Source: Escherichia phage ECO4. Taken from it: a stretch of 64,000 nucleotides of DNA. Shown here piece by piece: positions 1 to 11,024 of this stretch (within the stretch, counting starts at the first letter, position 1; each line of letters opens with the position of its first letter). Location of the stretch: sequence record NC_054911.1. One strand, given 5' to 3'. The position numbers were made by a program, and so were the translations under genes. A model generated the notes under the pieces. That model was not told where the DNA came from. It saw only the letters and a program-made list of their open reading frames with translations, and did not search any database.

Positions 1-828
1 GAGAATAAATGGAGCGTCTTGAAGTGGATAGACTAAGTCACCAGTTTTGTAAATTTCCAATAGTTGGAGTCCACCACGGCAAGCATGACTCAGAGCTTTC
101 CAGTCAATGCCCTCATTCGCTTCAGCCTTACGAGCACGTTCGCCGTATTCAGCATCAAGTTTATTCAAAGACTGCTTAAGCTCAATAAGAGAAAGCGTTG
201 TTTGATATTTACGACCCAACACAGTGTAGAACGTTTGTGGACCTGTTTTCTCATGATTATGGAATACCCATTCACAGAATTCGTTCTCTGGAAGACGATG
301 CTTAATATCTTCAACTTTAGTTCGACGCTGCTTAATGGAACCGTCTTCTTGGTAATCAACCCATTGCTCAGGGATTTGATTAACTACTTTCAACACATCA
401 CGTAATGCGGCCAAACGAGAACCCTTAACACCGTATTTAGAAGCTTGCTTGCGAACATATCCTAAGTAGGATTTCATGTTGGTCGTATAAAAACGAGAAC
501 GGTTGTCTTGAATAAACTTCCATACATCAGGCAAATCAGATTTAACTACTAGTTCCGGTGGAGTGTGGAGCATATCCAATGCTACAGTTTCACCATCTGC
601 TGCTAATTTAAAGAAATACTTAAGACTGTATAGTTCATGGTCAATATCATCTTTAGTGTTTTTAGATGATGTGTTGTTAGTGTTTTTACTCATATGCTCT
701 TTAACATTTCCAATAAGAATATCGCGAGCAGGAGGAACAAAGATTTCTTTAAAATCTACATCAGATTCTGGAGTAGAAGTTCCATAAAGATGACTACCAA
801 AATAGCTTTTCATTACTGTTTTCATCAT
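1..828 (-). CDS. nucleotidyltransferase-like protein, partial (C-terminus beyond window start)
   Basis: Open frame runs off the window start; ATG at 826-828 overlaps the upstream stop (ATGA); N-terminus MMKTVMKSYFGSHLYGTSTPESDVDF carries a G-S-x9-D-x-D motif typical of Pol-beta-superfamily nucleotidyltransferases. Confidence 0.5.
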   Translation of the reverse strand, partial: MMKTVMKSYFGSHLYGTSTPESDVDFKEIFVPPARDILIGNVKEHMSKNTNNTSSKNTKDDIDHELYSLKYFFKLAADGETVALDMLHTPPELVVKSDLPDVWKFIQDNRSRFYTTNMKSYLGYVRKQASKYGVKGSRLAALRDVLKVVNQIPEQWVDYQEDGSIKQRRTKVEDIKHRLPENEFCEWVFHNHEKTGPQTFYTVLGRKYQTTLSLIELKQSLNKLDAEYGERARKAEANEGIDWKALSHACRGGLQLLEIYKTGDLVYPLQDAPFIL

Positions 829-1286
829 TCAGCCTTATATTCAATAACAGGACATACTTTAGCTTTACGAGCTTTTAAAAATTCAACGATAATCGATTTC
901 TTGGGTTGAATAGGAGGTAAACCTTTATACGCTCTATCAATATTTTCTACGTGTAAAGCATAATCCTTTTTCCATTTATAATCTTTATATTTTTCACGCA
1001 AATGTGCAGGAATAACAAATGAACAGATAATAAGTAAAACAACCAAAAGCGCAAGTATAAATGCCGATGGAAGAAGAGTCCATAAACTACCAAAAATAAG
1101 CCAACGTTGTAAACTTTCTGCACAGATAATTGTTAGCCCTACGAGTATAGCACATCCAAAAATAGAAACGAAAAATGTAGGAATGGCAATAGACCAAAAA
1201 TATGCGCATAGTGTCTTAGGTCGTTGCCATTCATCGTTAAACAATTTGAATAATTTATAGTGCCAAGAGTTTTCATTAATAATCAT
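825..1286 (-). CDS. membrane protein, 153 aa, several hydrophobic helices
   Basis: ORF track; long hydrophobic stretches. Confidence 0.5.
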   Translation of the reverse strand: MIINENSWHYKLFKLFNDEWQRPKTLCAYFWSIAIPTFFVSIFGCAILVGLTIICAESLQRWLIFGSLWTLLPSAFILALLVVLLIICSFVIPAHLREKYKDYKWKKDYALHVENIDRAYKGLPPIQPKKSIIVEFLKARKAKVCPVIEYKAE

Positions 1287-1288
1287 AA

Positions 1289-1540
1289 TTATCCTTTCAT
1301 TGAAGGCGTAACGGTTGTTAAATACTTAATCATAGCTTCAGCTTCTGATTTTGACAATGAAATTTCTCCATTGTTTTGACGAATAGAAATAAAATCCGGA
1401 TGACGGTCACCACCAGCTTTTAAAACACACATATAAGTATCAGTTTCGCCTTCAATATTTGAAATGATTGAAGCAGTTCCACATGAATGCGGTTTTTGAT
1501 AAATCAATACAGCTTTTCTTCCGCCATTTGGACTGCTCAT
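1289..1540 (-). CDS. hypothetical protein (start uncertain, overlaps the upstream ORF by about 90 nt)
   Basis: ORF track; ATG at 1538-1540. Confidence 0.3.
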   Translation of the reverse strand: MSSPNGGRKAVLIYQKPHSCGTASIISNIEGETDTYMCVLKAGGDRHPDFISIRQNNGEISLSKSEAEAMIKYLTTVTPSMKG

Positions 1541-1811
1541 AGGCTTTTAATACATCAAACAAATCAGTTCTTTTATCAATAGCTAAAATGTTATTTTCAT
1601 CTTCAATGTTAAATCCTTCGGATACTTCATAAAGTGTCACCCATAAATCGCCAATATCAATAACAGCGTTCACTTTTCCATGACTTTCAAGAGCATGACA
1701 AATTTTCTTGATTTCGTCATAACTCATTTTAATAATATCATCTCCTTGAATAAGAAAGATGTCATTTTTAAATTCAACACGAATTAAACCACTTCCACTT
1801 GAAATAAACAT
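1452..1811 (-). CDS. hypothetical protein, 119 aa
   Basis: ORF track; GAGGA Shine-Dalgarno upstream of the ATG. Confidence 0.5.
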   Translation of the reverse strand: MFISSGSGLIRVEFKNDIFLIQGDDIIKMSYDEIKKICHALESHGKVNAVIDIGDLWVTLYEVSEGFNIEDENNILAIDKRTDLFDVLKAYEQSKWRKKSCIDLSKTAFMWNCFNHFKY

Positions 1812-2032
1812 ATTTCCTCACTTTGAAATCATAGTTGGAATGACAGAATCAAGATAAGTCTTTAGCGCAATAGCTTCGTCTTTGGTAAATGTGACAATAT
1901 GTGATCGAAAATCGTCAATTTGGCGAATAGTTAAGACATCTCCCTCTTCATAACATTTTGATACATTTAAAAGAGTTTCATCATTCTGATTGCAAGCGTT
2001 AGTAATAATAGCATTGCAATTTTTGAGCCATT

Positions 2033-2371
2033 TTAAACTATGTTTTCTTTCATTAGAATAATAAAATATTTAATCTTAGCTATAAAACTATCCCAATGGA
2101 TAACTGATAAACACATTGACTCGCTTTTAATATTAAATCCTGGGCATGAAGAATAAAAATGAATTTTATGCTCATCATTAATGCTTACAATTTTATCAGT
2201 GTAAGCATATTCAATTTGAGTTAAACGAACAATTTCACTAGGTGTAAAATACAGCATATCGTCTTCTTGCGTCAAACGATACATATTATTTACTTTTTCT
2301 ATAGCCAATTCACCAAAAAGTGGACTAACTTCTAATACTAATCGTTTCATATTAATCCTTTTTATTGGCAC
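2033..2371 (-). CDS. hypothetical protein, 112 aa
   Basis: ORF track; same orientation and tight packing with neighbours. Confidence 0.45.
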   Translation of the reverse strand: MPIKRINMKRLVLEVSPLFGELAIEKVNNMYRLTQEDDMLYFTPSEIVRLTQIEYAYTDKIVSINDEHKIHFYSSCPGFNIKSESMCLSVIHWDSFIAKIKYFIILMKENIV

Positions 2372-2630
2372 GAATTTGTTCTAAAATTTTAGAGTATTCC
2401 TTTGTATCAGATTTACGTACAATCGATACACTATACGGCATACTATCGGTGTCTTTTATAAAGCGTTCCAAATGACATTCTAATAAAATTTCTGGATTAT
2501 AAATCGTGTACATCAAATTACCTGTTGCTCCACGATATTGACAGATTTCTACTGATTGAACACCATTCCATAATTTTGTTAAGACCAAATCACCTACTTC
2601 TAATTTAGGAAAGCCCATGTTATTCACCAA
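2352..2630 (-). CDS. hypothetical protein, 92 aa
   Basis: ORF track. Confidence 0.45.
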   Translation of the reverse strand: MVNNMGFPKLEVGDLVLTKLWNGVQSVEICQYRGATGNLMYTIYNPEILLECHLERFIKDTDSMPYSVSIVRKSDTKEYSKILEQIRANKKD

Positions 2631-2805
2631 TTAAAGTTTCAATATAAGAATCAAGATTTACTTTAGCTTCTTCCATAAGAGTTTTGTATTTAATCTTGTT
2701 GGCATGTCCGGAGAAAGCTGATTCATCAATAATTGTTGATGTATGAACAGCTTTACTATACGTCTCAATTAATTCTCTTAATTTAAAAGCCTGCTCACTT
2801 GTCAT
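2620..2805 (-). CDS. hypothetical protein, 61 aa
   Basis: ORF track; ATG at 2803-2805. Confidence 0.4.
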   Translation of the reverse strand: MTSEQAFKLRELIETYSKAVHTSTIIDESAFSGHANKIKYKTLMEEAKVNLDSYIETLIGE

Positions 2806-2909
2806 TACATACTCCTCTGAATCATATCAATAATGTTGTTCACCAGATTATAAGTAAACATTGGGTAATTATATTGAATCATCACATACACAACAAACAA
2901 AACTTTCAT
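2805..2909 (-). CDS. small hydrophobic peptide, 34 aa (MKVLFVVYVMIQ...), not in ORF track
   Basis: Manual translation; strong SD AAGGAGAAGAGA before the ATG; stop overlaps the next start codon. Confidence 0.3.
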   Translation of the reverse strand: MKVLFVVYVMIQYNYPMFTYNLVNNIIDMIQRSM

Positions 2910-2937
2910 TCTCTTCTCCTTGGCAGTTGACAAGATT

Positions 2938-2967
2938 ACTATACCATAACCTTGTCAACTTGTAAAC
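2938..2967 (-). promoter_or_regulatory. T4-type early promoter (-35 GTTTAC, 18-nt spacer, -10 TATAGT)
   Basis: Reverse complement of 2938-2967 read directly. Confidence 0.55.
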
Positions 2968-2969
2968 CA

Positions 2970-3125
2970 TTAAATGACGTTTTCGATAAAATTCTGAAGC
3001 TTTGTATGAGCATCAACCATGATTTTCATTTCTTCTTTGGCAAAAGCTGTGCCTCTTTCACGAGAAGAACATTCATAGTCAGAAACTGCATTAGCATATT
3101 CTTCAATTAGCTTCATTAAAAACAT
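2970..3125 (-). CDS. small ORF, about 51 aa, not in ORF track
   Basis: Manual translation of the minus strand (MFLMKLIEEYANAVSDYECSS...). Confidence 0.25.
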   Translation of the reverse strand: MFLMKLIEEYANAVSDYECSSRERGTAFAKEEMKIMVDAHTKLQNFIENVI

Positions 3126-3132
3126 CTGCTTT

Positions 3133-3327
3133 TCAGTTTTCATTATTCCACCTAATCATTTCAAGATATTGAACTAACTTAGCTTTAGATTTATCCAAAT
3201 CCTTTTTAGCTGTTGCTATACCTTCGTATGAATATCCTTCGCAATGCTCAACTGCTAATTGATATGAATCTATTTCAACATCGCGTGCTAATTTAATGAT
3301 TTTTTCAAACTGTTCGTGTGTTAGCAT
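3133..3327 (-). CDS. hypothetical protein, 64 aa
   Basis: ORF track. Confidence 0.4.
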   Translation of the reverse strand: MLTHEQFEKIIKLARDVEIDSYQLAVEHCEGYSYEGIATAKKDLDKSKAKLVQYLEMIRWNNEN

Positions 3328-3329
3328 AC

Positions 3330-3569
3330 TTAAACTCTCGTATTATGATCGATAATTTCATCAAGAAACATATCTAACGCTTCTAAAGCATTATCAACTT
3401 TAGCTTCAAAGTCTTTAATGCCTTTATTTGCAATGCCTGACGAAAACCAAGCAAAGTCACTAAGTTCCTCATCTGCTTTACGAATTAAAGCTACCAATTC
3501 CTTAATTTTATCCGCTTGTTCGATACTAATCATTATTCCACCACATATGAAAGAGAGAATATTGCACAT
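3330..3569 (-). CDS. hypothetical protein (79 aa, or 67 aa from the internal Met)
   Basis: ORF track. Confidence 0.4.
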
Positions 3570-3721
3570 GCCATGTGAGTTGCAACTTCATCACACATAT
3601 TATAACGTTTCTTAAGAAGTTCTACAAGTTCTTCACTGGTAACTTCATCCATGTCGACGAAAAAATCACCATTAATGATGACGTAGATATTTCCTTCTTG
3701 ATTAAGTGCTTCAATTTTCAT
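3533..3721 (-). CDS. hypothetical protein, 62 aa (MKIEALNQ...)
   Basis: Track ORF 3533-3868 trimmed to the Met that follows the early promoter at 3750-3779. Confidence 0.4.
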
Positions 3722-3749
3722 GATGTTCTCCTCTTTATCCGATGGTTGT

Positions 3750-3779
3750 ATAGTATCACAGCTCAAACGGAAAGTAAAC
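3750..3779 (-). promoter_or_regulatory. T4-type early promoter (-35 GTTTAC, 18-nt spacer, -10 TACTAT with TGa extension)
   Basis: Read directly. Confidence 0.55.
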
Positions 3780-3793
3780 CGGTAAAATGAAAA

Positions 3794-3811
3794 AGTCTCC
3801 CGAAGGAGACT
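3794..3811 (-). terminator. intrinsic terminator hairpin (UUCG tetraloop on the minus strand) followed by a T-run
   Basis: AGTCTCC-CGAA-GGAGACT with A5 upstream on the plus strand. Confidence 0.55.
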
Positions 3812-3815
3812 AATG

Positions 3816-4202
3816 TTATTCGAGGGAAAGAAGATACTTACTCTGGTAAAACATCCCAGTAATATCATCTATCGTGCTTTGAATGGCTGGAGGCATTTCT
3901 TTATAAATGCTGTTAGATTGGTCTAGTATGCGATCAATCATTTTAATTGTGTCGGTAGGAAGTTTACTGGCATCTGGAATTGAAGGCGTGTATTTTCTAC
4001 CAGAATACCCCAAATATTGCTCACCAAATTTATCAATCAAATCTGGCAATTCGGAGAAAATAAAATCGTATGCTTTGTGTCTAGCATAACTTTTAGTTTC
4101 AAAATGCGCAGAATGAAAATAAGCTTGTGCAGCCATTAATAAACCTAAGTATTCATCTGCCTTTGAAGGTTTTCCACTTTGTGAAAAGTCGCTGAATTTC
4201 AT
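3816..4202 (-). CDS. hypothetical protein, 128 aa
   Basis: ORF track; immediately downstream of rI. Confidence 0.5.
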
Positions 4203-4492
4203 TCAGTCTCCAATTTAATGTTCATAATTCTAGCGTATGATTGTGCCATCTCCGCGCCTCGTTCTATACATTCAAAATCAGAAGAGCACGGGTCATTTTT
4301 ATAGGTCGTTCTCATAAAACTATAGAACTGTTCAGATGATTCTACGCTTTTATTTTCAAAAAGCATATAAACATGTCTAATACCAGATTCCATAAATTTA
4401 TCAAAATGAGGATCGACATTCGCTTCAATTGGTGGAGATAAAGCAAATGACAATCCTAGCATGGCAAATAGTGCCGTTGCTTTTAAGGCCAT
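4199..4492 (-). CDS. rI: lysis-inhibition regulator RI-like periplasmic protein, 97 aa
   Basis: N-terminal signal-anchor (MALKATALFAMLGLSFALSPPIEA), length equals T4 RI, position next to tk. Confidence 0.7.
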   Translation of the reverse strand: MALKATALFAMLGLSFALSPPIEANVDPHFDKFMESGIRHVYMLFENKSVESSEQFYSFMRTTYKNDPCSSDFECIERGAEMAQSYARIMNIKLETE

Positions 4493-4504
4493 AAAGGCCT
4501 CCTA

Positions 4505-4717
4505 TCATTTTTGTCCTGTATTTACTTTATGCCGATGCACGGCCTTAACTTTATCAAGGTATTTTTCAAAATTTCGCAATCTAGTATAGTCTGCCGGAGA
4601 TTGGTTGAGTGATACTTCTCGACGCAAAGCTGAAATGATATTTCCAACTTCCCTACGAATTTCATCTAATTGAAGCACAGTAAGATTGCGAAGTTGCTTT
4701 TCAGTTAATTGTAGCAT
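4505..4717 (-). CDS. hypothetical protein, 70 aa
   Basis: ORF track; ATG at 4715-4717 downstream of a late promoter. Confidence 0.45.
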
Positions 4718-4742
4718 ATATACCCCTTTAGTTAGATAAACC

Positions 4743-4750
4743 TATTTATA
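4743..4750 (-). promoter_or_regulatory. T4-type late promoter -10 element (TATAAATA on the minus strand)
   Basis: Plus strand reads TATTTATA, about 26 nt upstream of the 4717 start. Confidence 0.5.
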
Positions 4751-4759
4751 ACTTTTGCA

Positions 4760-5341
4760 CTAACCGAGCTTTTTAGTTAATTCATTCCAATGTTTTCTAC
4801 ACAAAGAAACATAAATTTCATCACCAATACAGATTTGATTACCTTCTTTAACTGGTGTTCCATCTTCCATTAATCGAGCTGTCATAATCGCTTTTTTGCC
4901 GCAATGACAAACTGCCTTTAGTTCAATAAGTTTATCTGCAATCGCTAAAAGTTCTTTAGAACCTTCAAACAATTTTCCAGCGAAATCAGTCCTTAATCCA
5001 TAAGCCATAACAGGAACATTATATGTATCAACAATTCGACTTAATTGATGCACCTGTTCAGTTTTTAAAAACTGAGCTTCATCTACAAATACGCAATGAA
5101 TATCTTTTTGTGCTTCAGCCCATTTATAGAACTCGAAAATATCCATATCATCTGTAATAATATTCGCTTCCTGTTTAATTCCAATGCGAGAAACAACTTC
5201 ACAGACAGAATCGCGAGTATCAATAGCAGGCTTAAGAACTAATACACTCATTCCACGTTCTTTATAATTATGTGCAGCAGTCAAAAGAGAAGCAGATTTT
5301 CCAGCATTCATTGCTGCATAAGTAAAAATTAAACTCGCCAT
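4760..5341 (-). CDS. tk: thymidine kinase
   Basis: 193 aa; P-loop MNAGKS; C-terminal zinc cysteines; length equals T4 Tk. Confidence 0.9.
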   Translation of the reverse strand: MASLIFTYAAMNAGKSASLLTAAHNYKERGMSVLVLKPAIDTRDSVCEVVSRIGIKQEANIITDDMDIFEFYKWAEAQKDIHCVFVDEAQFLKTEQVHQLSRIVDTYNVPVMAYGLRTDFAGKLFEGSKELLAIADKLIELKAVCHCGKKAIMTARLMEDGTPVKEGNQICIGDEIYVSLCRKHWNELTKKLG

Positions 5342-5350
5342 ATCACCTTC

Positions 5351-5536
5351 TTAAAGCGTATTCACATAAGCTATTAATTCATTTTCTTTCTTATCAAACC
5401 GATCAGCAAATTCTTCCTGCTGTTCGGGAGATAGCGGGCCGTATTCATCATAAAAGGTGTTTGCTTCTGTATGCTCATCTAGAAGTTCATGGATAAGCTC
5501 AAACAATTTATCTTTTTGTTCTTTGCTTAGACTCAC
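5351..5536 (-). CDS. hypothetical protein, 61 aa (GTG start)
   Basis: ORF track. Confidence 0.4.
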   Translation of the reverse strand: MSLSKEQKDKLFELIHELLDEHTEANTFYDEYGPLSPEQQEEFADRFDKKENELIAYVNTL

Positions 5537-5709
5537 AGTATGTCAATCCCCAAAAGTTTTAAAATGACTCGTTTCTGATTCATAACCGCTACGATTGAAT
5601 GACCGTTGTGGTCTTTTTGACCTGATCCAATTATAAATCCTTTTTGCGCAGAAAGTTCAATCAAAACATCAAGTTCACGTAATAATTGATATTTTAAATC
5701 ATCATTCAT
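5533..5709 (-). CDS. small ORF, about 58 aa (MNDDLKYQLLRELDVL...), not in ORF track
   Basis: Manual translation; ATG overlaps the upstream stop (ATGA). Confidence 0.3.
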   Translation of the reverse strand: MNDDLKYQLLRELDVLIELSAQKGFIIGSGQKDHNGHSIVAVMNQKRVILKLLGIDIL

Positions 5710-5933
5710 TTTGGTTTACCTTCTTTAACGAAATCAGGATAAGGATAAAATCCCGAATAAAATCCTTCACCTTTATGATTGATGCATCCTTTATTAGAAC
5801 AATAGCACCAATAATCGAAATCACAAGCCATTTCATCGTTGCATAAAGCAAAAACAACCGGCCACTTACACTTTTCACAGTGGGCATTTTTAAGAATACT
5901 AGTTTGGCTCATAACCATGTAACCTTTAAGCAA
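5706..5933 (-). CDS. cysteine-rich small protein, 75 aa, probable zinc-binding
   Basis: ORF track; multiple C-x2-C pairs. Confidence 0.45.
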   Translation of the reverse strand: MLKGYMVMSQTSILKNAHCEKCKWPVVFALCNDEMACDFDYWCYCSNKGCINHKGEGFYSGFYPYPDFVKEGKPK

Positions 5934-6121
5934 TATTCTTCTACATGTTGTTTACGACCTTTCTTATCAATAAAGGTATATTCAACGAATGTTCCAATGT
6001 AGTCTTTATCTACATCATGTGGACTATTAATTGGACATTTAGTACGGCAAATGCGTTCCCATTGACGAATAATTTCCACTTTGTTTTTAGGATCAAACGG
6101 ATGTGGGTAATGTACTTTCAT
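5909..6121 (-). CDS. hypothetical protein, 70 aa
   Basis: ORF track. Confidence 0.4.
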   Translation of the reverse strand: MKVHYPHPFDPKNKVEIIRQWERICRTKCPINSPHDVDKDYIGTFVEYTFIDKKGRKQHVEEYCLKVTWL

Positions 6122-6572
6122 AATCCACCACTATTAAATCAATATCAGGAGTAAACATGTCGATTAATTTAGAAACCTTATCCCAATCGCCGCCAGCAAT
6201 ACCACAACCTATGCGTGGAATGTAAATTACTGGTTTAAACAAAAGGGTTTCTGCCTGTAGATTTAATTCTATCATGCAGTTTACTAAAGCACCATAATCA
6301 AGATTAGGACCTGGTTCGTATTGCGTGTACAAGTTATAACATATGCCAAAACCATTAGGTTTATGTTTAAAAACAATAGACATATCGCCTAATTTATCAC
6401 GAGAACCGTACTCAGTAGTGGTTTTATCTATTTCTAAAATTTTGGGATAGGCTCTTGCTAATTGACCCGCTACACCTGAACCCATAGTATGAAAACAATT
6501 GCACCCGTGCGCAATAATATTACCTTGAAGAAATAGGGCGACAATATCGCCCTTGATATATTTTACAATCAT
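6093..6572 (-). CDS. macro-domain protein (ADP-ribose binding/processing fold), 159 aa
   Basis: Motifs KGDIV...GNIIAHGCNCFHTMGSGVAGQL and IPRIGCGIAGGDW resemble macro-domain signatures; ATG at 6570-6572. Confidence 0.6.
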   Translation of the reverse strand: MIVKYIKGDIVALFLQGNIIAHGCNCFHTMGSGVAGQLARAYPKILEIDKTTTEYGSRDKLGDMSIVFKHKPNGFGICYNLYTQYEPGPNLDYGALVNCMIELNLQAETLLFKPVIYIPRIGCGIAGGDWDKVSKLIDMFTPDIDLIVVDYESTLPTSV

Positions 6573-6910
6573 CTAGTACTCAATCCTCGATTATAAGAAT
6601 CTACCAAACGGTCAACCATTGAATGACAAGCGGCTTTATCTTTCTCCTCCGCAACTGAACATTCTAAGGTATTCCACTTTTTAGCATATCGTTTTAACAA
6701 TGTATCGTTTTTGTATCTGCTTGATTTATCTCTTTCTCCGTCTTTATATGCATATATTAATTTCTGCGCAAATTCAGCTTGGCATGCTTTATTTTTCCCG
6801 CAATAATCCGCTGCAGTACGGTTTACATACTCTCTAATTTCAGTATATGATGTATCTGCTAACGCAGAAAATGAAATTAATCCTATACATAAAACCAAAA
6901 TTTTAGTCAT
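6569..6910 (-). CDS. secreted cysteine-containing protein with signal peptide, 113 aa
   Basis: N-terminal MTKILVLCIGLISFSALA signal peptide. Confidence 0.5.
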   Translation of the reverse strand: MTKILVLCIGLISFSALADTSYTEIREYVNRTAADYCGKNKACQAEFAQKLIYAYKDGERDKSSRYKNDTLLKRYAKKWNTLECSVAEEKDKAACHSMVDRLVDSYNRGLSTR

Positions 6911-7448
6911 TTACTATTTCCAAAAGTTTATTATTTTTAAGGTAATTAGCCTTTTCTAGGACTTCAGAAGCATATTTAGAACCTGCTTTAACATTCCATC
7001 CCGAATTATAAGAGGATATTGCTTTTCTTATATCGCCCTTATGTATATTTAACCAATAAGAAAGTTCAATGTACGCCCAGGAAGCTGAATTGGACCGTTT
7101 ATTCAACATTCTTTTTATTTCAGCATCGGTCATATTATAACCAAGTTCCTTAACTCTTGCTCGCATAGTAGGCAAATAATTTTGGAACATTCCATAAGCG
7201 TGATGCTTTGGTTTAGATTTTAAATTAACTCCGCCAGAGCTTTCTTGCCATAAAATAGCAGCCATTATATGACCTAATCCGCTCTTGTGGATATTTTTGT
7301 GTGTTTTATATTTTCCATCCTTAGAAAATTGTTCCCCGAATTGATACGCGTAACGCATGTTATCGAGTTGGACATTACTGAAAGTATGCTCGGAGCTATG
7401 TGCCATCATTGAAATGGCCAATAGACCAGCGAGTAGTGCTTTTCTCAT
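6903..7448 (-). CDS. periplasmic SLT-like lytic transglycosylase, 181 aa
   Basis: Signal peptide plus SLT motifs (AILWQESSGG, HAYGMFQ, SSYNSGW). Confidence 0.6.
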   Translation of the reverse strand: MRKALLAGLLAISMMAHSSEHTFSNVQLDNMRYAYQFGEQFSKDGKYKTHKNIHKSGLGHIMAAILWQESSGGVNLKSKPKHHAYGMFQNYLPTMRARVKELGYNMTDAEIKRMLNKRSNSASWAYIELSYWLNIHKGDIRKAISSYNSGWNVKAGSKYASEVLEKANYLKNNKLLEIVND

Positions 7449-7455
7449 GCTTACC

Positions 7456-7917
7456 TCATTGAGTTTTAATTACTGCTTTAGAAGCCTTTCCTGGTAAACG
7501 ACGACTGTTGATAATTGCCATCCTACATTGAAGTGACGGGTCTTTGAACTTCGCATTAGGTTTACAAACTGTAAATCCAAGCCAAAGATTTCCATCTGTG
7601 ATTTCTAAACGTCCAGGACGATATTCAACCCCATCAATAAAATCCTCGTCAATGTCAGGACGCGGAGGCATACTCAGGAATTCATTAACTTCTAAAACAT
7701 GGTCTTTTATTTTATGGAATAATTCAAAAACATATGTCTCATCAATCTCCCGTTGAATTGCACGATCAAGAAGATGTTGAGAATATTTTAGATGAAACGA
7801 TGAGACTCCTGCTGCTTTTGATGCCTCACGAATCTCATTGTTAATTTGACGAAACTCCGACTCAAAGTGACGACGAAGCTTATTTCGACGGATAAAAACT
7901 TCTGTATTGATAGTCAT
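7456..7917 (-). CDS. regB: RegB site-specific endoribonuclease
   Basis: 153 aa; sequence matches T4 RegB as I recall it; early promoter immediately upstream. Confidence 0.85.
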   Translation of the reverse strand: MTINTEVFIRRNKLRRHFESEFRQINNEIREASKAAGVSSFHLKYSQHLLDRAIQREIDETYVFELFHKIKDHVLEVNEFLSMPPRPDIDEDFIDGVEYRPGRLEITDGNLWLGFTVCKPNAKFKDPSLQCRMAIINSRRLPGKASKAVIKTQ

Positions 7918-8255: not shown

Positions 8256-8521
8256 TAGTATTTTTCCTCTGGTTGGAACACTGCGCGACAAGCCCACATA
8301 CTGGCTTCTTTGAGTTTCGTTTTAGCAATAGTTAACTGATCGAGGCTTTCGGCGTAATTCTTCGCGAGTTCATCATCTTCACAGCTATCAAATGCTTCCC
8401 AAAATTCATCGTATAAAGCATCAAAGATAAGTCCTAAACGAACTTCAGCGTCTTTAATAGCATTTACTTTACCGATTTTTTCGTCGGTGTGTGGCTTATA
8501 ACCTTTAATATCTTCAATCAT
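8255..8521 (-). CDS. hypothetical protein, 88 aa (track ORF trimmed to ATG with SD)
   Basis: Track ORF starts at TTG; ATG at 8519-8521 preceded by GAGGAAG. Confidence 0.45.
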
Positions 8522-8735
8522 ATTTGACTTCCTCACCAGTGCATAAATCATATTCAACTAAACGAATAGGTTCATGAATGCCATATCCCTGAACAGAAAT
8601 TTCTGTCGTAGGATAAATTCCATTAATATCACCCATGTTCCATGCTTCGTTAAATTGCTGTTCGCCTGAATTACTAAACCACTCGGCGAAAGCATTTAGC
8701 ACATCTTCAGAACCTTCAATAATTATCTTTGCCAT
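8514..8735 (-). CDS. hypothetical protein, 73 aa
   Basis: ORF track; ATG at 8733-8735. Confidence 0.4.
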   Translation of the reverse strand: MAKIIIEGSEDVLNAFAEWFSNSGEQQFNEAWNMGDINGIYPTTEISVQGYGIHEPIRLVEYDLCTGEEVKYD

Positions 8736-9097
8736 TACAAACTCTCGGTGAAGGTACGAGCGATAACGTCGCGCTGCTGTTCCGGAGTCAGAGAGTTAAA
8801 GCGAACTGCATAACCGGATACACGGATGGTCAGCTGCGGATATTTTTCCGGATGCTTAACTGCATCTTCCAGAGTTTCACGACGCAGAACGTTAACGTTC
8901 AGGTGTTGACCACCTTCAATTTTAACTGTAGGTTGTGTTTCAATTTCAATTTCACGGGCATGCAAACCATAGAAAATTTCTGGGTCTACAAAAGAGTCCT
9001 CTTTAAAGGTTTTAGAAACAATAATTCGCGCTTGAATACCATCTTCAAAATAAATAGTACCTTTATGCGTGCCTTCAAGAATTTGATATGCTTTCAT
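8735..9097 (-). CDS. autonomous glycyl-radical cofactor (GrcA/YfiD-like), 120 aa
   Basis: C-terminal glycyl-radical motif [25 protein letters not shown]; ATG at 9095-9097 with SD (track start is TTG). Confidence 0.75.
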
Positions 9098-9105
9098 ATA
9101 ACCTC

Positions 9106-9435
9106 TCAATTAGAAAATAAATTTATCCAAGATTGTTCTTTAATTAAAAATGGCTCAGAATCGTATGCCATTAAACTTTGGGTGATTAGTCCTTTAAAAG
9201 GTCCATCAATAAATTCCATAGTAAAATATGGAATTTTATTCATTAATCTTGCATTAGGAGCAGTACACAAAACTCTGCATCCTTTGAATACGCCTTTTTG
9301 TAATTTGTATTGCTTGGGATAAAATTCGCTCAAAATGTTATTTTTTGCCAAAATTTCAAAATGATTCACCAATTTATTTTTAATAGTTTTTGGCGAAAAA
9401 TAAAGATATTCGAAAAGTTGCGTATCTGTCATCAT
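9106..9435 (-). CDS. hypothetical protein, 109 aa (track ORF trimmed to ATG)
   Basis: ATG at 9433-9435 overlaps the upstream stop (ATGA). Confidence 0.4.
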
Positions 9436-10019
9436 TGCATTCCGATTACGAAAAACTGTGGACGAGTAATACCACCAATGCAACATTTAATATTACAGCA
9501 GCAGTGTACAGTGTCAATATGGACACTATAAATCTTATCCATATCAGGAGATTTGACAGGCTCATCAATTATATACAAAATTCGCGAAAGCGATAAACCT
9601 CTGAACTTGCTTCCTTTATTACCAATAAAACTGCGCACAGAATCAGTAAATAAACGAAAACGTATATCATCATTAGAATAACGCGAAAATTCCTTTTTAA
9701 TATTATCTGCGGAAATTTTAGCGTAAGCTGAAGTATTAGAAAGAACAATAACTGTTCCGCCATCATACAGCCAATTAGCAGCAAAGTTAGTCACAGCAAT
9801 TGATTTGCCGGATTGACGTCCACCATCTATACGAAGTGTGCAGTACTGTTTAAGTAATTCTTCAAATGGCGGGATATAATCGTTTTTACAAATTTCTTCT
9901 ACTCTAGCATCAGAATGGTGTGTAAAAGCATTCATCAGGGATAGATAAGGACCAGTTAAAAATGTTCTCATTTTATTCTCTCTAGGTTTGGGCCATTCCG
10001 TGGCACATGAATTGTCCAT
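9432..10019 (-). CDS. P-loop NTPase with Walker A/B motifs and a cysteine-rich C-terminus, 195 aa
   Basis: Walker A GGRQSGKS, Walker B ILYIIDE, C-terminal HCCCNIKCC. Confidence 0.5.
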   Translation of the reverse strand: MDNSCATEWPKPRENKMRTFLTGPYLSLMNAFTHHSDARVEEICKNDYIPPFEELLKQYCTLRIDGGRQSGKSIAVTNFAANWLYDGGTVIVLSNTSAYAKISADNIKKEFSRYSNDDIRFRLFTDSVRSFIGNKGSKFRGLSLSRILYIIDEPVKSPDMDKIYSVHIDTVHCCCNIKCCIGGITRPQFFVIGMQ

Positions 10020-10607: not shown

Positions 10608-11024
10608 TTAAATGTAAATATTTTTGCCGTAATACTTGTACCAGTGTGGCTTCATTAAAATTTTTTCATCGAGTCGTTGTTGACTCAATTTAATAGCTGA
10701 TTTGCATGGATTATAATCATTTTTCCATTCTGCTGGAATATCGCTGATGTCAGGAACTTCAGTATCTTTTATACTAAACCCGCGTTTTAAGCATTCCGTT
10801 ATAATGTCTGATTGACGCTTTCGCAAAAATTCTAACTTATCGTAAAAGAACGTAACATGACCAGAACCTAAAATAAACTCGGAAGATATTTTAAAATCTT
10901 TAACCCGCTTACCATTTGCCACATGTTTACGAACTATACCAAAAACACGTGGCAATTCACGGTATTCTGCGATTAAATGCTGATCAGCAAGTTCAGATAC
11001 TAAAGTCAAATTAATACGAGTCAT
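10608..11024 (-). CDS. denV: endonuclease V (pyrimidine-dimer DNA glycosylase)
   Basis: 138 aa; [17 protein letters not shown]... matches T4 DenV as recalled. Confidence 0.9.

Follow-up and report, generated by a model that had tools for sequence, protein, structure and literature searches.

The T4-type gene vs.6 of Escherichia phage ECO4, a phage version of the glycyl-radical cofactor GrcA with a radical domain of host origin

In the stretch of Escherichia phage ECO4 DNA that we analysed (64,000 nt of the record NC_054911.1, hereafter the window), the gene vs.6 is the T4-type phage version of the host gene grcA (yfiD), and its product, known in T4 as Y06I, very probably repairs the host pyruvate formate-lyase PflB after cleavage by oxygen (we put the probability at about 0.87). 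This gene is an already known and biochemically tested gene of T4-type phages, and the gene call itself adds nothing. The sole addition to it is its mosaic structure, in which a 5′ half of phage type is joined to a 3′ half identical to Escherichia coli grcA over most of its length. The mosaic bears on the frequency of recombination between lytic phages and the host chromosome and on the role of the N-terminal half of the protein.

Coordinates, context and family of the gene

The features considered in this work are collected in Table 1. The vs.6 frame runs uninterrupted on the minus strand from an ATG (9097-9095) to a TAA (8737-8735), for a total of 363 nt, corresponding to 120 aa and the stop. 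These are exactly the coordinates (8735-9097) given in an earlier reading of the DNA made from the sequence alone (the sequence-only reading), as judged by the ORF, its translation and the starts of the homologues. We rejected an alternative TTG start at 9109, four codons further 5′, because all the homologues begin with MKAYQ and the annotated CDSs of the relatives are all 363 nt in length. The Shine-Dalgarno sequence overlaps the TGA stop (9106-9108) of the upstream gene vs.7, and it is kept in the alignments with T4, EcNP1 and Jiaodavirus. At the other end, the stop of vs.6 and the start of vs.5 overlap in the sequence TAATG (vs.5 ATG at 8733-8735, ORF at 8514-8735), and a GAGAG (8742-8746) lies inside the 3′ end of vs.6, 6 nt before the vs.5 ATG. 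The same stop-start overlap is annotated in RB69, KP179 and Matisse. Given the overlaps with the vs.7 stop and the vs.5 start, vs.6 is packed in a run of translationally coupled small genes.

Table 1. Position of vs.6, its parts and two neighbouring genes in the window.
Feature	Position	Strand	Basis or remark
vs.6 (Y06I / phage GrcA) CDS	8735..9097	-	ORF and translation; Pfam Gly_radical; PHROG 1209; annotation in relatives
Shine-Dalgarno GAGAGG of vs.6	9102..9107	-	read from the sequence; 4 nt before the ATG
RVSGY motif (residues 92-96)	8810..8824	-	alignments to 6OWR and 1H16
Phage-type 5′ half, codons 1-59	8921..9097	-	AT-rich; no DNA similarity to grcA
Host-derived patch, 169-nt run	8751..8919	-	zero mismatches to E. 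coli grcA; pairwise alignments
Phage-type 3′ end of vs.6	8735..8750	-	5 synonymous differences from E. coli grcA
RegB	7456-7917	-	neighbour of vs.6
DenV (endonuclease V)	10608-11024	-	neighbour of vs.6

The gene order regB, vs.3, vs.4, vs.5, vs.6, vs.7, vs.8, denV matches that of T4, RB69, EcNP1 and other Tevenvirinae. We also scanned for promoters and terminators, counting the sites against shuffled sequence: there were 16 promoter-like sites versus 12.9 expected and 2 terminator-like sites versus 2.3 expected, values from which a transcription unit is not inferable. As a separate observation on this cluster, the protein of the vs.8 homologue (9435-10019, minus strand) has a Walker-A-like GGRQSGKS and, apart from its own PHROG family of unknown function (phrog_1488), weakly matches the family of large terminases in their ATPase region (phrog_2, E=5.4e-6).

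Vs.6 is identical to its T4 counterpart at 119 of 120 residues (99.2%), the T4 genome contains only one place that matches, and for this reason we considered it as the same protein as T4 Y06I. The sequence-only reading, which had proposed a phage-encoded GrcA/YfiD homologue, is supported, although it did not identify the gene as the long-known T4-type vs.6. In T4 the gene occupies the same locus, between vs.7 and vs.5, and there, too, it is a mosaic whose 3′ half is E. coli-identical; it differs at residue 54 (Thr in the window phage, Pro in T4 strain 147) and in the last 13 nt before the stop, where the differences from E. coli grcA are 5 in the window phage and 2 in T4. Not T4 itself but Escherichia phage A6-6 (99.4%) and Shigella phage ESh24 (99.2%) are the closest records; the phage is T4-type and belongs to the genus Tequatrovirus. 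In the T4 strain 147 record (KJ477685), the vs.6 and vs.5 frames are intact (positions 1501-2076 of the compared locus), although neither has an annotated CDS.

The gene is widespread, with 755 phage records found by megablast and homologues in 1,587 found by tblastn. The latter include T5-like phages, T4-like phages of Aeromonas and Vibrio, and one Yersinia jumbo phage. Many of these records are already labelled "autonomous glycyl radical cofactor GrcA", and vs.6 was described as one of the few T4 ORFs of unknown function kept in all the T4-like genomes compared (Nolan et al. 2006, PMC1524935). Other GenBank labels for the 120-aa protein are "pyruvate formate-lyase", "acetyltransferase-related protein" and "HNH homing endonuclease", so the annotation is inconsistent. 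The homologues of Slopekvirus, Karamvirus, Pseudotevenvirus, Krischvirus, Aeromonas T4-likes, Tequintavirus and Eneladusvirus have the same size and an RVSGY domain, and the phage-type N-terminal motif is common to most of them. In Salmonella phage Spc35 (T5-like, locus 329-969) and Aeromonas phage 31 (locus 23-960) the homologue lies directly downstream of a phage tRNA block, unlike the T4 position.

Concerning the domain structure, Gly_radical is the sole Pfam domain of Vs.6 (residues 60-101, E=2.2e-18, 67 bits with a cut-off of 22). The protein is a stand-alone glycyl-radical domain protein of 120 aa lacking a catalytic barrel, which is the size and layout of GrcA/YfiD (TIGR04365, IPR011140). 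The best NCBIfam model was, by a wide margin, TIGR04365 for GrcA (E=1.4e-45); the score of 154.6 bits is below the equivalog cut-off of 170 because the N-terminal half is divergent. Vs.6 also matches phrog_1209 over its full length (E=5.4e-63, residues 1-120 on profile positions 1-121), and both this profile match and the position in the regB-denV cluster assign it to the PHROG 1209 family. On the pyruvate formate-lyase model TIGR01255, instead, it covers only positions 680-744 of 744, with 89 bits versus a cut-off of 994. We did not consider it as a pyruvate formate-lyase, since it has no barrel of about 760 aa with Cys418/Cys419, and the "pyruvate formate-lyase" labels in several phage records are, as judged from these protein comparisons, over-calls.

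The best PDB match was E. coli GrcA (6OWR, E=4.6e-42). Precisely, residues 61-120 of Vs.6 correspond to GrcA residues 68-127 with 60/60 identities, and BLASTP gave 74 identical residues out of 100 over the aligned part. A match to PflB residues 697-759 (PDB 1H16) extends over 63 residues (E=4.8e-26). The radical glycine is Gly95 (codon 8813-8815), aligned with GrcA Gly102 and PflB Gly734, and RVSGY is invariant among 13 aligned phage and bacterial homologues. The N-terminal half behaves differently: residues 22-60 share 14 identities with GrcA in 40 aligned positions (about 35%) and residues 1-21 gave no alignment with it, the homology of this half with that of GrcA being likely on the basis of the alignable part. 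In these respects the sequence-only reading, which had described a C-terminal half nearly identical to E. coli GrcA, an RVSGY glycyl-radical motif and a divergent N-terminal half, was borne out; the alignment to GrcA and to the PflB C-terminus, which it had proposed as a check, returned both the high C-terminal identity and the radical-glycine context.

Expected function in the infected cell

According to Andorfer et al. (PMC8683613), oxygen cleaves PFL at Gly734, and YfiD and Y06I are the only two validated spare parts; the same paper, citing Wagner et al. 2001 (PMID 11444864), describes both as proteins of about 14 kDa which receive their radical from PFL-AE and restore O2-cleaved PFL. Hence the spare-part function for pyruvate formate-lyase, which the sequence-only reading had suggested for this gene, had already been reported there for the T4 orthologue.

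In YfiD, residues 1-60 are disordered and, according to NMR and biochemistry, promote both the binding to cleaved PFL and an efficient installation of the radical, while residues 61-127 form the radical domain, which by NMR reproduces the fold of PFL 693-759. Vs.6 resembles E. coli GrcA in being a stand-alone protein of about 14 kDa made of an N-terminal half and a structured radical domain, and in the N-terminal residues IQI, AR.IV.K, ED and RE. It differs in being 7 residues shorter, in the phage composition and codon usage of its N-terminal half, and in its genomic position (the host gene lies between ung and eamB, vs.6 in a phage early-region cluster). With the C-terminal domain of PflB (1H16, 697-759) it shares the motif and the domain, but not the 10-stranded barrel and the catalytic cysteines, and thus it cannot be an enzyme by itself. 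Since the two-part layout is the same and the second part is identical to host GrcA, the Y06I mechanism should apply directly to Vs.6.

In this mechanism, traces of oxygen reaching a fermenting host would cleave PflB at the radical glycine Gly734. Vs.6 would then dock on the cleaved PflB, with its N-terminal half aiding the binding, and its C-terminal 60 residues would replace the lost glycyl-radical loop and helix of PflB. The host activase PflA would put a new radical on Gly95, and the conversion of pyruvate into formate and acetyl-CoA (hence ATP) would resume. If so, T4-type phages invest in host fermentation when oxygen leaks in, and the gain for the phage would be an energy supply kept up during microaerobic infection in the gut. 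No in vivo phenotype of vs.6 mutants emerged from the literature searched. T4 shuts off host gene expression, so the amount of PflB and PflA left to repair in an infected cell is uncertain.

A second gain could be formate, from which the class III (anaerobic) ribonucleotide reductase draws its reducing power; T4-type phages encode such a reductase, NrdD, together with its activase NrdG, and the repair of PflB might keep up formate as reductant for the phage NrdD. Aeromonas phage PX29 has the genes nrdD, nrdG, vs.6, nrdC and nrdH in this order, with vs.6 overlapping the end of nrdG (locus 359-3947), and in the Yersinia jumbo phage fHe-Yen9-04 a single ORF separates nrdD from the homologue downstream of it (locus 1-957). 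This gene neighbourhood in two phages, taken with textbook biochemistry, hints at a functional link of phage GrcA with NrdD via PFL-derived formate. The adjacency to nrdD or nrdG elsewhere makes it testable whether PFL repair is connected, through the formate supply, with anaerobic dNTP synthesis in gut infections. In the window we looked for nrdD and nrdG near vs.6: neither adjoins it, and there was no ORF of at least 200 aa in positions 1-7000.

The same adjacency in PX29 and fHe-Yen9-04 could be read in another way, namely that Vs.6 is a spare part for the anaerobic ribonucleotide reductase itself, replacing the oxygen-cleaved glycyl-radical tail of phage or host NrdD; Nolan et al. (2006, PMC1524935) in fact suggested a role in nucleotide metabolism on the grounds of a shared Gly_radical domain. 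We considered this very improbable. The C-terminal domain is identical to that of host GrcA and matches PflB 697-759, the PFL-type pattern RVSGYA..F..LT is kept in all the phage homologues, the 33 PDB sequences with a match at E<=0.001 included no NrdD chain, and reconstitution of PFL is reported for Y06I (PMC8683613). Among the NCBIfam and PDB matches at the thresholds used, moreover, there was no NrdD model or structure that would indicate similarity to an NrdD glycyl-radical tail.

The N-terminal half raises a different alternative. In YfiD this half governs the recognition of cleaved PFL and the efficiency of activation, whereas in Vs.6 it is phage-specific and strongly conserved among phages, so that an altered targeting is conceivable: Vs.6 might act as a decoy or regulator, competing for PflA or occupying PflB, and thereby redirect or damp the host fermentation. 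A pure inhibitor, however, would need neither the catalytic glycine nor the radical domain, which are intact and, as a whole, host-identical, and Y06I is reported to restore activity in vitro (PMC8683613). There is, in our opinion, little chance that this reading is the correct one. The repair of PflB is the function that we retained, and a radical domain which is PFL-type, host-identical and strongly conserved disfavours both these readings as well as the one considered in the next section.

The host-identical patch

We compared vs.6 with 5,426 complete E. coli genomes by BLASTN. In each of them only the last 185 nt of the gene gave a match, at 97% and to grcA, and none of the 5,426 genomes matched the gene upstream of query position 179. 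The 169-nt identical run includes synonymous sites and encodes the structured glycyl-radical domain, and the 5 differences from E. coli grcA, all synonymous, are confined to the 13 nt that precede the stop. Within the domain interior, identity to E. coli grcA is complete in both the window and T4 (165/165 nt, including all 55 third codon positions). The codon of GrcA residue 68, at which the patch starts, falls shortly after the beginning of the NMR-defined structured domain (61-127).

Composition gave the same partition. GC3 is 0.46 in the 3′ half of vs.6 and 0.19 in the 5′ half, versus 0.25-0.33 in the neighbouring phage genes and 0.43 in E. coli grcA; CTG, CGT and CCG are among the codons of the 3′ half. 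A codon-usage comparison with host and phage had been proposed in the sequence-only reading, which regarded the gene as host-derived: the comparison gave a host-like 3′ half and a phage-like 5′ half, and the derivation holds for the 3′ half, given its identity to grcA and its GC3. At the protein level, the 5′ half carries the motif MKAYQIL.G..KGTIY..D...AR.IVSKT..ED, common to distant phages, for which reason we took it to be old phage sequence. The 3′ half, as judged by the nucleotide identity, came very recently from an Escherichia grcA.

We considered three other explanations for the identity. Constraint on the amino acids was rejected as its cause, because in bacteria of other genera whose 60 residues are the same, identity to E. 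coli is limited to 152-167 of 180 nt and 32-47 of 60 third positions, with identical runs <=44 nt. The longest run identical to the patch in any bacterium outside Escherichia was <=48 nt, and another Escherichia species, in the same stretch, is identical to E. coli grcA at 178/180 nt. The genes pflB and tdcE were rejected as donors, their DNA identity to the patch of the window being about 75% versus 97% for grcA, which indicates grcA, and not pflB, as the donor. A laboratory or assembly artefact was rejected as well, the patch being present in hundreds of independent isolates.

An E. coli-identical run of 169 nt with host-like composition denotes a very recent host origin of the 3′ half, and it could be asked, then, whether the whole gene is a functionless passenger, that is a recently captured fragment of host DNA which is in frame by chance. 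We regarded this as the least credible of the alternatives, with hardly any probability. The gene is intact, at a coverage of at least 80%, in 1,539 of the 1,587 phage records found by tblastn, which belong to several phage families; the patch is in frame within a phage gene that is older and conserved, and the 5′ half of this gene has diverged less than the neighbouring genes; and the changes of the patch among phages are nearly all synonymous.

Probable replacement of the radical domain in different phage genera

We compared the window with RB69, a Mosigvirus, in which the flanking genes have diverged considerably: identity was 68% for vs.7, 72% for vs.5 and 64% for vs.4, versus 88.7% for the 5′ half of vs.6 (8921-9097 versus RB69 locus 1501-1677) and 96.7% for its 3′ half. 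In the compared phage loci, including those of T4 strain 147 and RB69, the patch region corresponds to locus positions 1678-1863. In the interior of the domain RB69 is identical to E. coli grcA at 163/165 nt, and the other Tequatrovirus and Mosigvirus genomes at 157-162/165, their private changes being almost entirely synonymous. Since the Escherichia-type patch is present in both genera in spite of flanks with 64-72% identity, it is much younger than the split between Tequatrovirus and Mosigvirus, having been either acquired independently or passed between the genera. The high conservation of the 5′ half between the two could reflect either strong purifying selection or an inter-phage exchange reaching into the 5′ half.

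The Jiaodavirus phages of Klebsiella have an orthologous vs.6 at the same locus, with a 5′ half 72-73% identical to that of the window. In their 3′ half the encoded variant is LLDAVEH, as is typical for Klebsiella, Salmonella and several further enterobacterial genera among those sampled. The patch of KP179 is identical to K. pneumoniae grcA at 152/165 nt versus 142/165 for E. coli, and that of ValerieMcCarty02 at 158/165 versus 145/165. At the 20 sites distinguishing the two bacterial genes, the Jiaodavirus genes have the K. pneumoniae base at 14 and 16, whereas T4 and the window have that of E. coli at 20/20, and on these grounds we rejected a single ancestral capture for all the patches. 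pflB was rejected as the donor of the KP179 patch (83% versus 91% for Klebsiella grcA). The grcA of Pseudocitrobacter, with 157/165 to the patch of ValerieMcCarty02, is nearly as close as that of K. pneumoniae, so that the Jiaodavirus donor is better described as Klebsiella-like, not Escherichia, than securely as K. pneumoniae. Taken together, these nucleotide comparisons suggest that the radical domain has undergone at least two independent host-to-phage replacements.

The replacement is not universal. In Slopekvirus, Karamvirus, Pseudotevenvirus, Krischvirus, T5-like phages, Aeromonas T4-like phages and the jumbo Yersinia phage, the 3′ halves reach only 63-85% identity with any of the bacterial grcA genes sampled and have no long runs identical to them; these homologues differ from those of Tequatrovirus and Mosigvirus in that they lack a very recent host patch.

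We propose, as a tentative explanation to which we give slightly less than even odds, that the half of the gene coding for the radical domain is repeatedly overwritten by host grcA via homologous recombination during infection, each lineage carrying the allele of its current host. The radical domain, about 80% or more identical to the host copy, would be a target for recombination at each infection, while the diverged 5′ half and 3′ tip would escape replacement. Tequatrovirus, Mosigvirus and Jiaodavirus all keep the old phage-type 5′ half and 3′ tip, the latter holding the ribosome-binding site and the start of the next gene. If this explanation is true, vs.6 would serve as a natural reporter, easy to score, of the recombination that a strictly lytic phage with modified DNA undergoes with the chromosome it is degrading. 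In the literature searched we found no description of a mosaic or gene conversion of phage grcA, nor of its role as an auxiliary metabolic gene, though the mosaic may have been reported before.

Two minor observations were made on the records used. In Escherichia phage vB-Eco-KMB39, vs.6 contains a 55-nt direct tandem duplication (AGTTAAAATTGAAGG...GAAACT; locus 201-618), which begins at the 5′ edge of the host-derived patch and shifts the frame, with two overlapping "vs.6" CDSs annotated as a result; either a recombination scar or an error in the assembly could account for it. Several "plasmid" records with grcA or pflB in PLSDB are 4-5 Mb long and are evidently mislabelled chromosomes, an example being CP125156.1 (K. 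pneumoniae strain 176 "plasmid unnamed2", 5.37 Mb).
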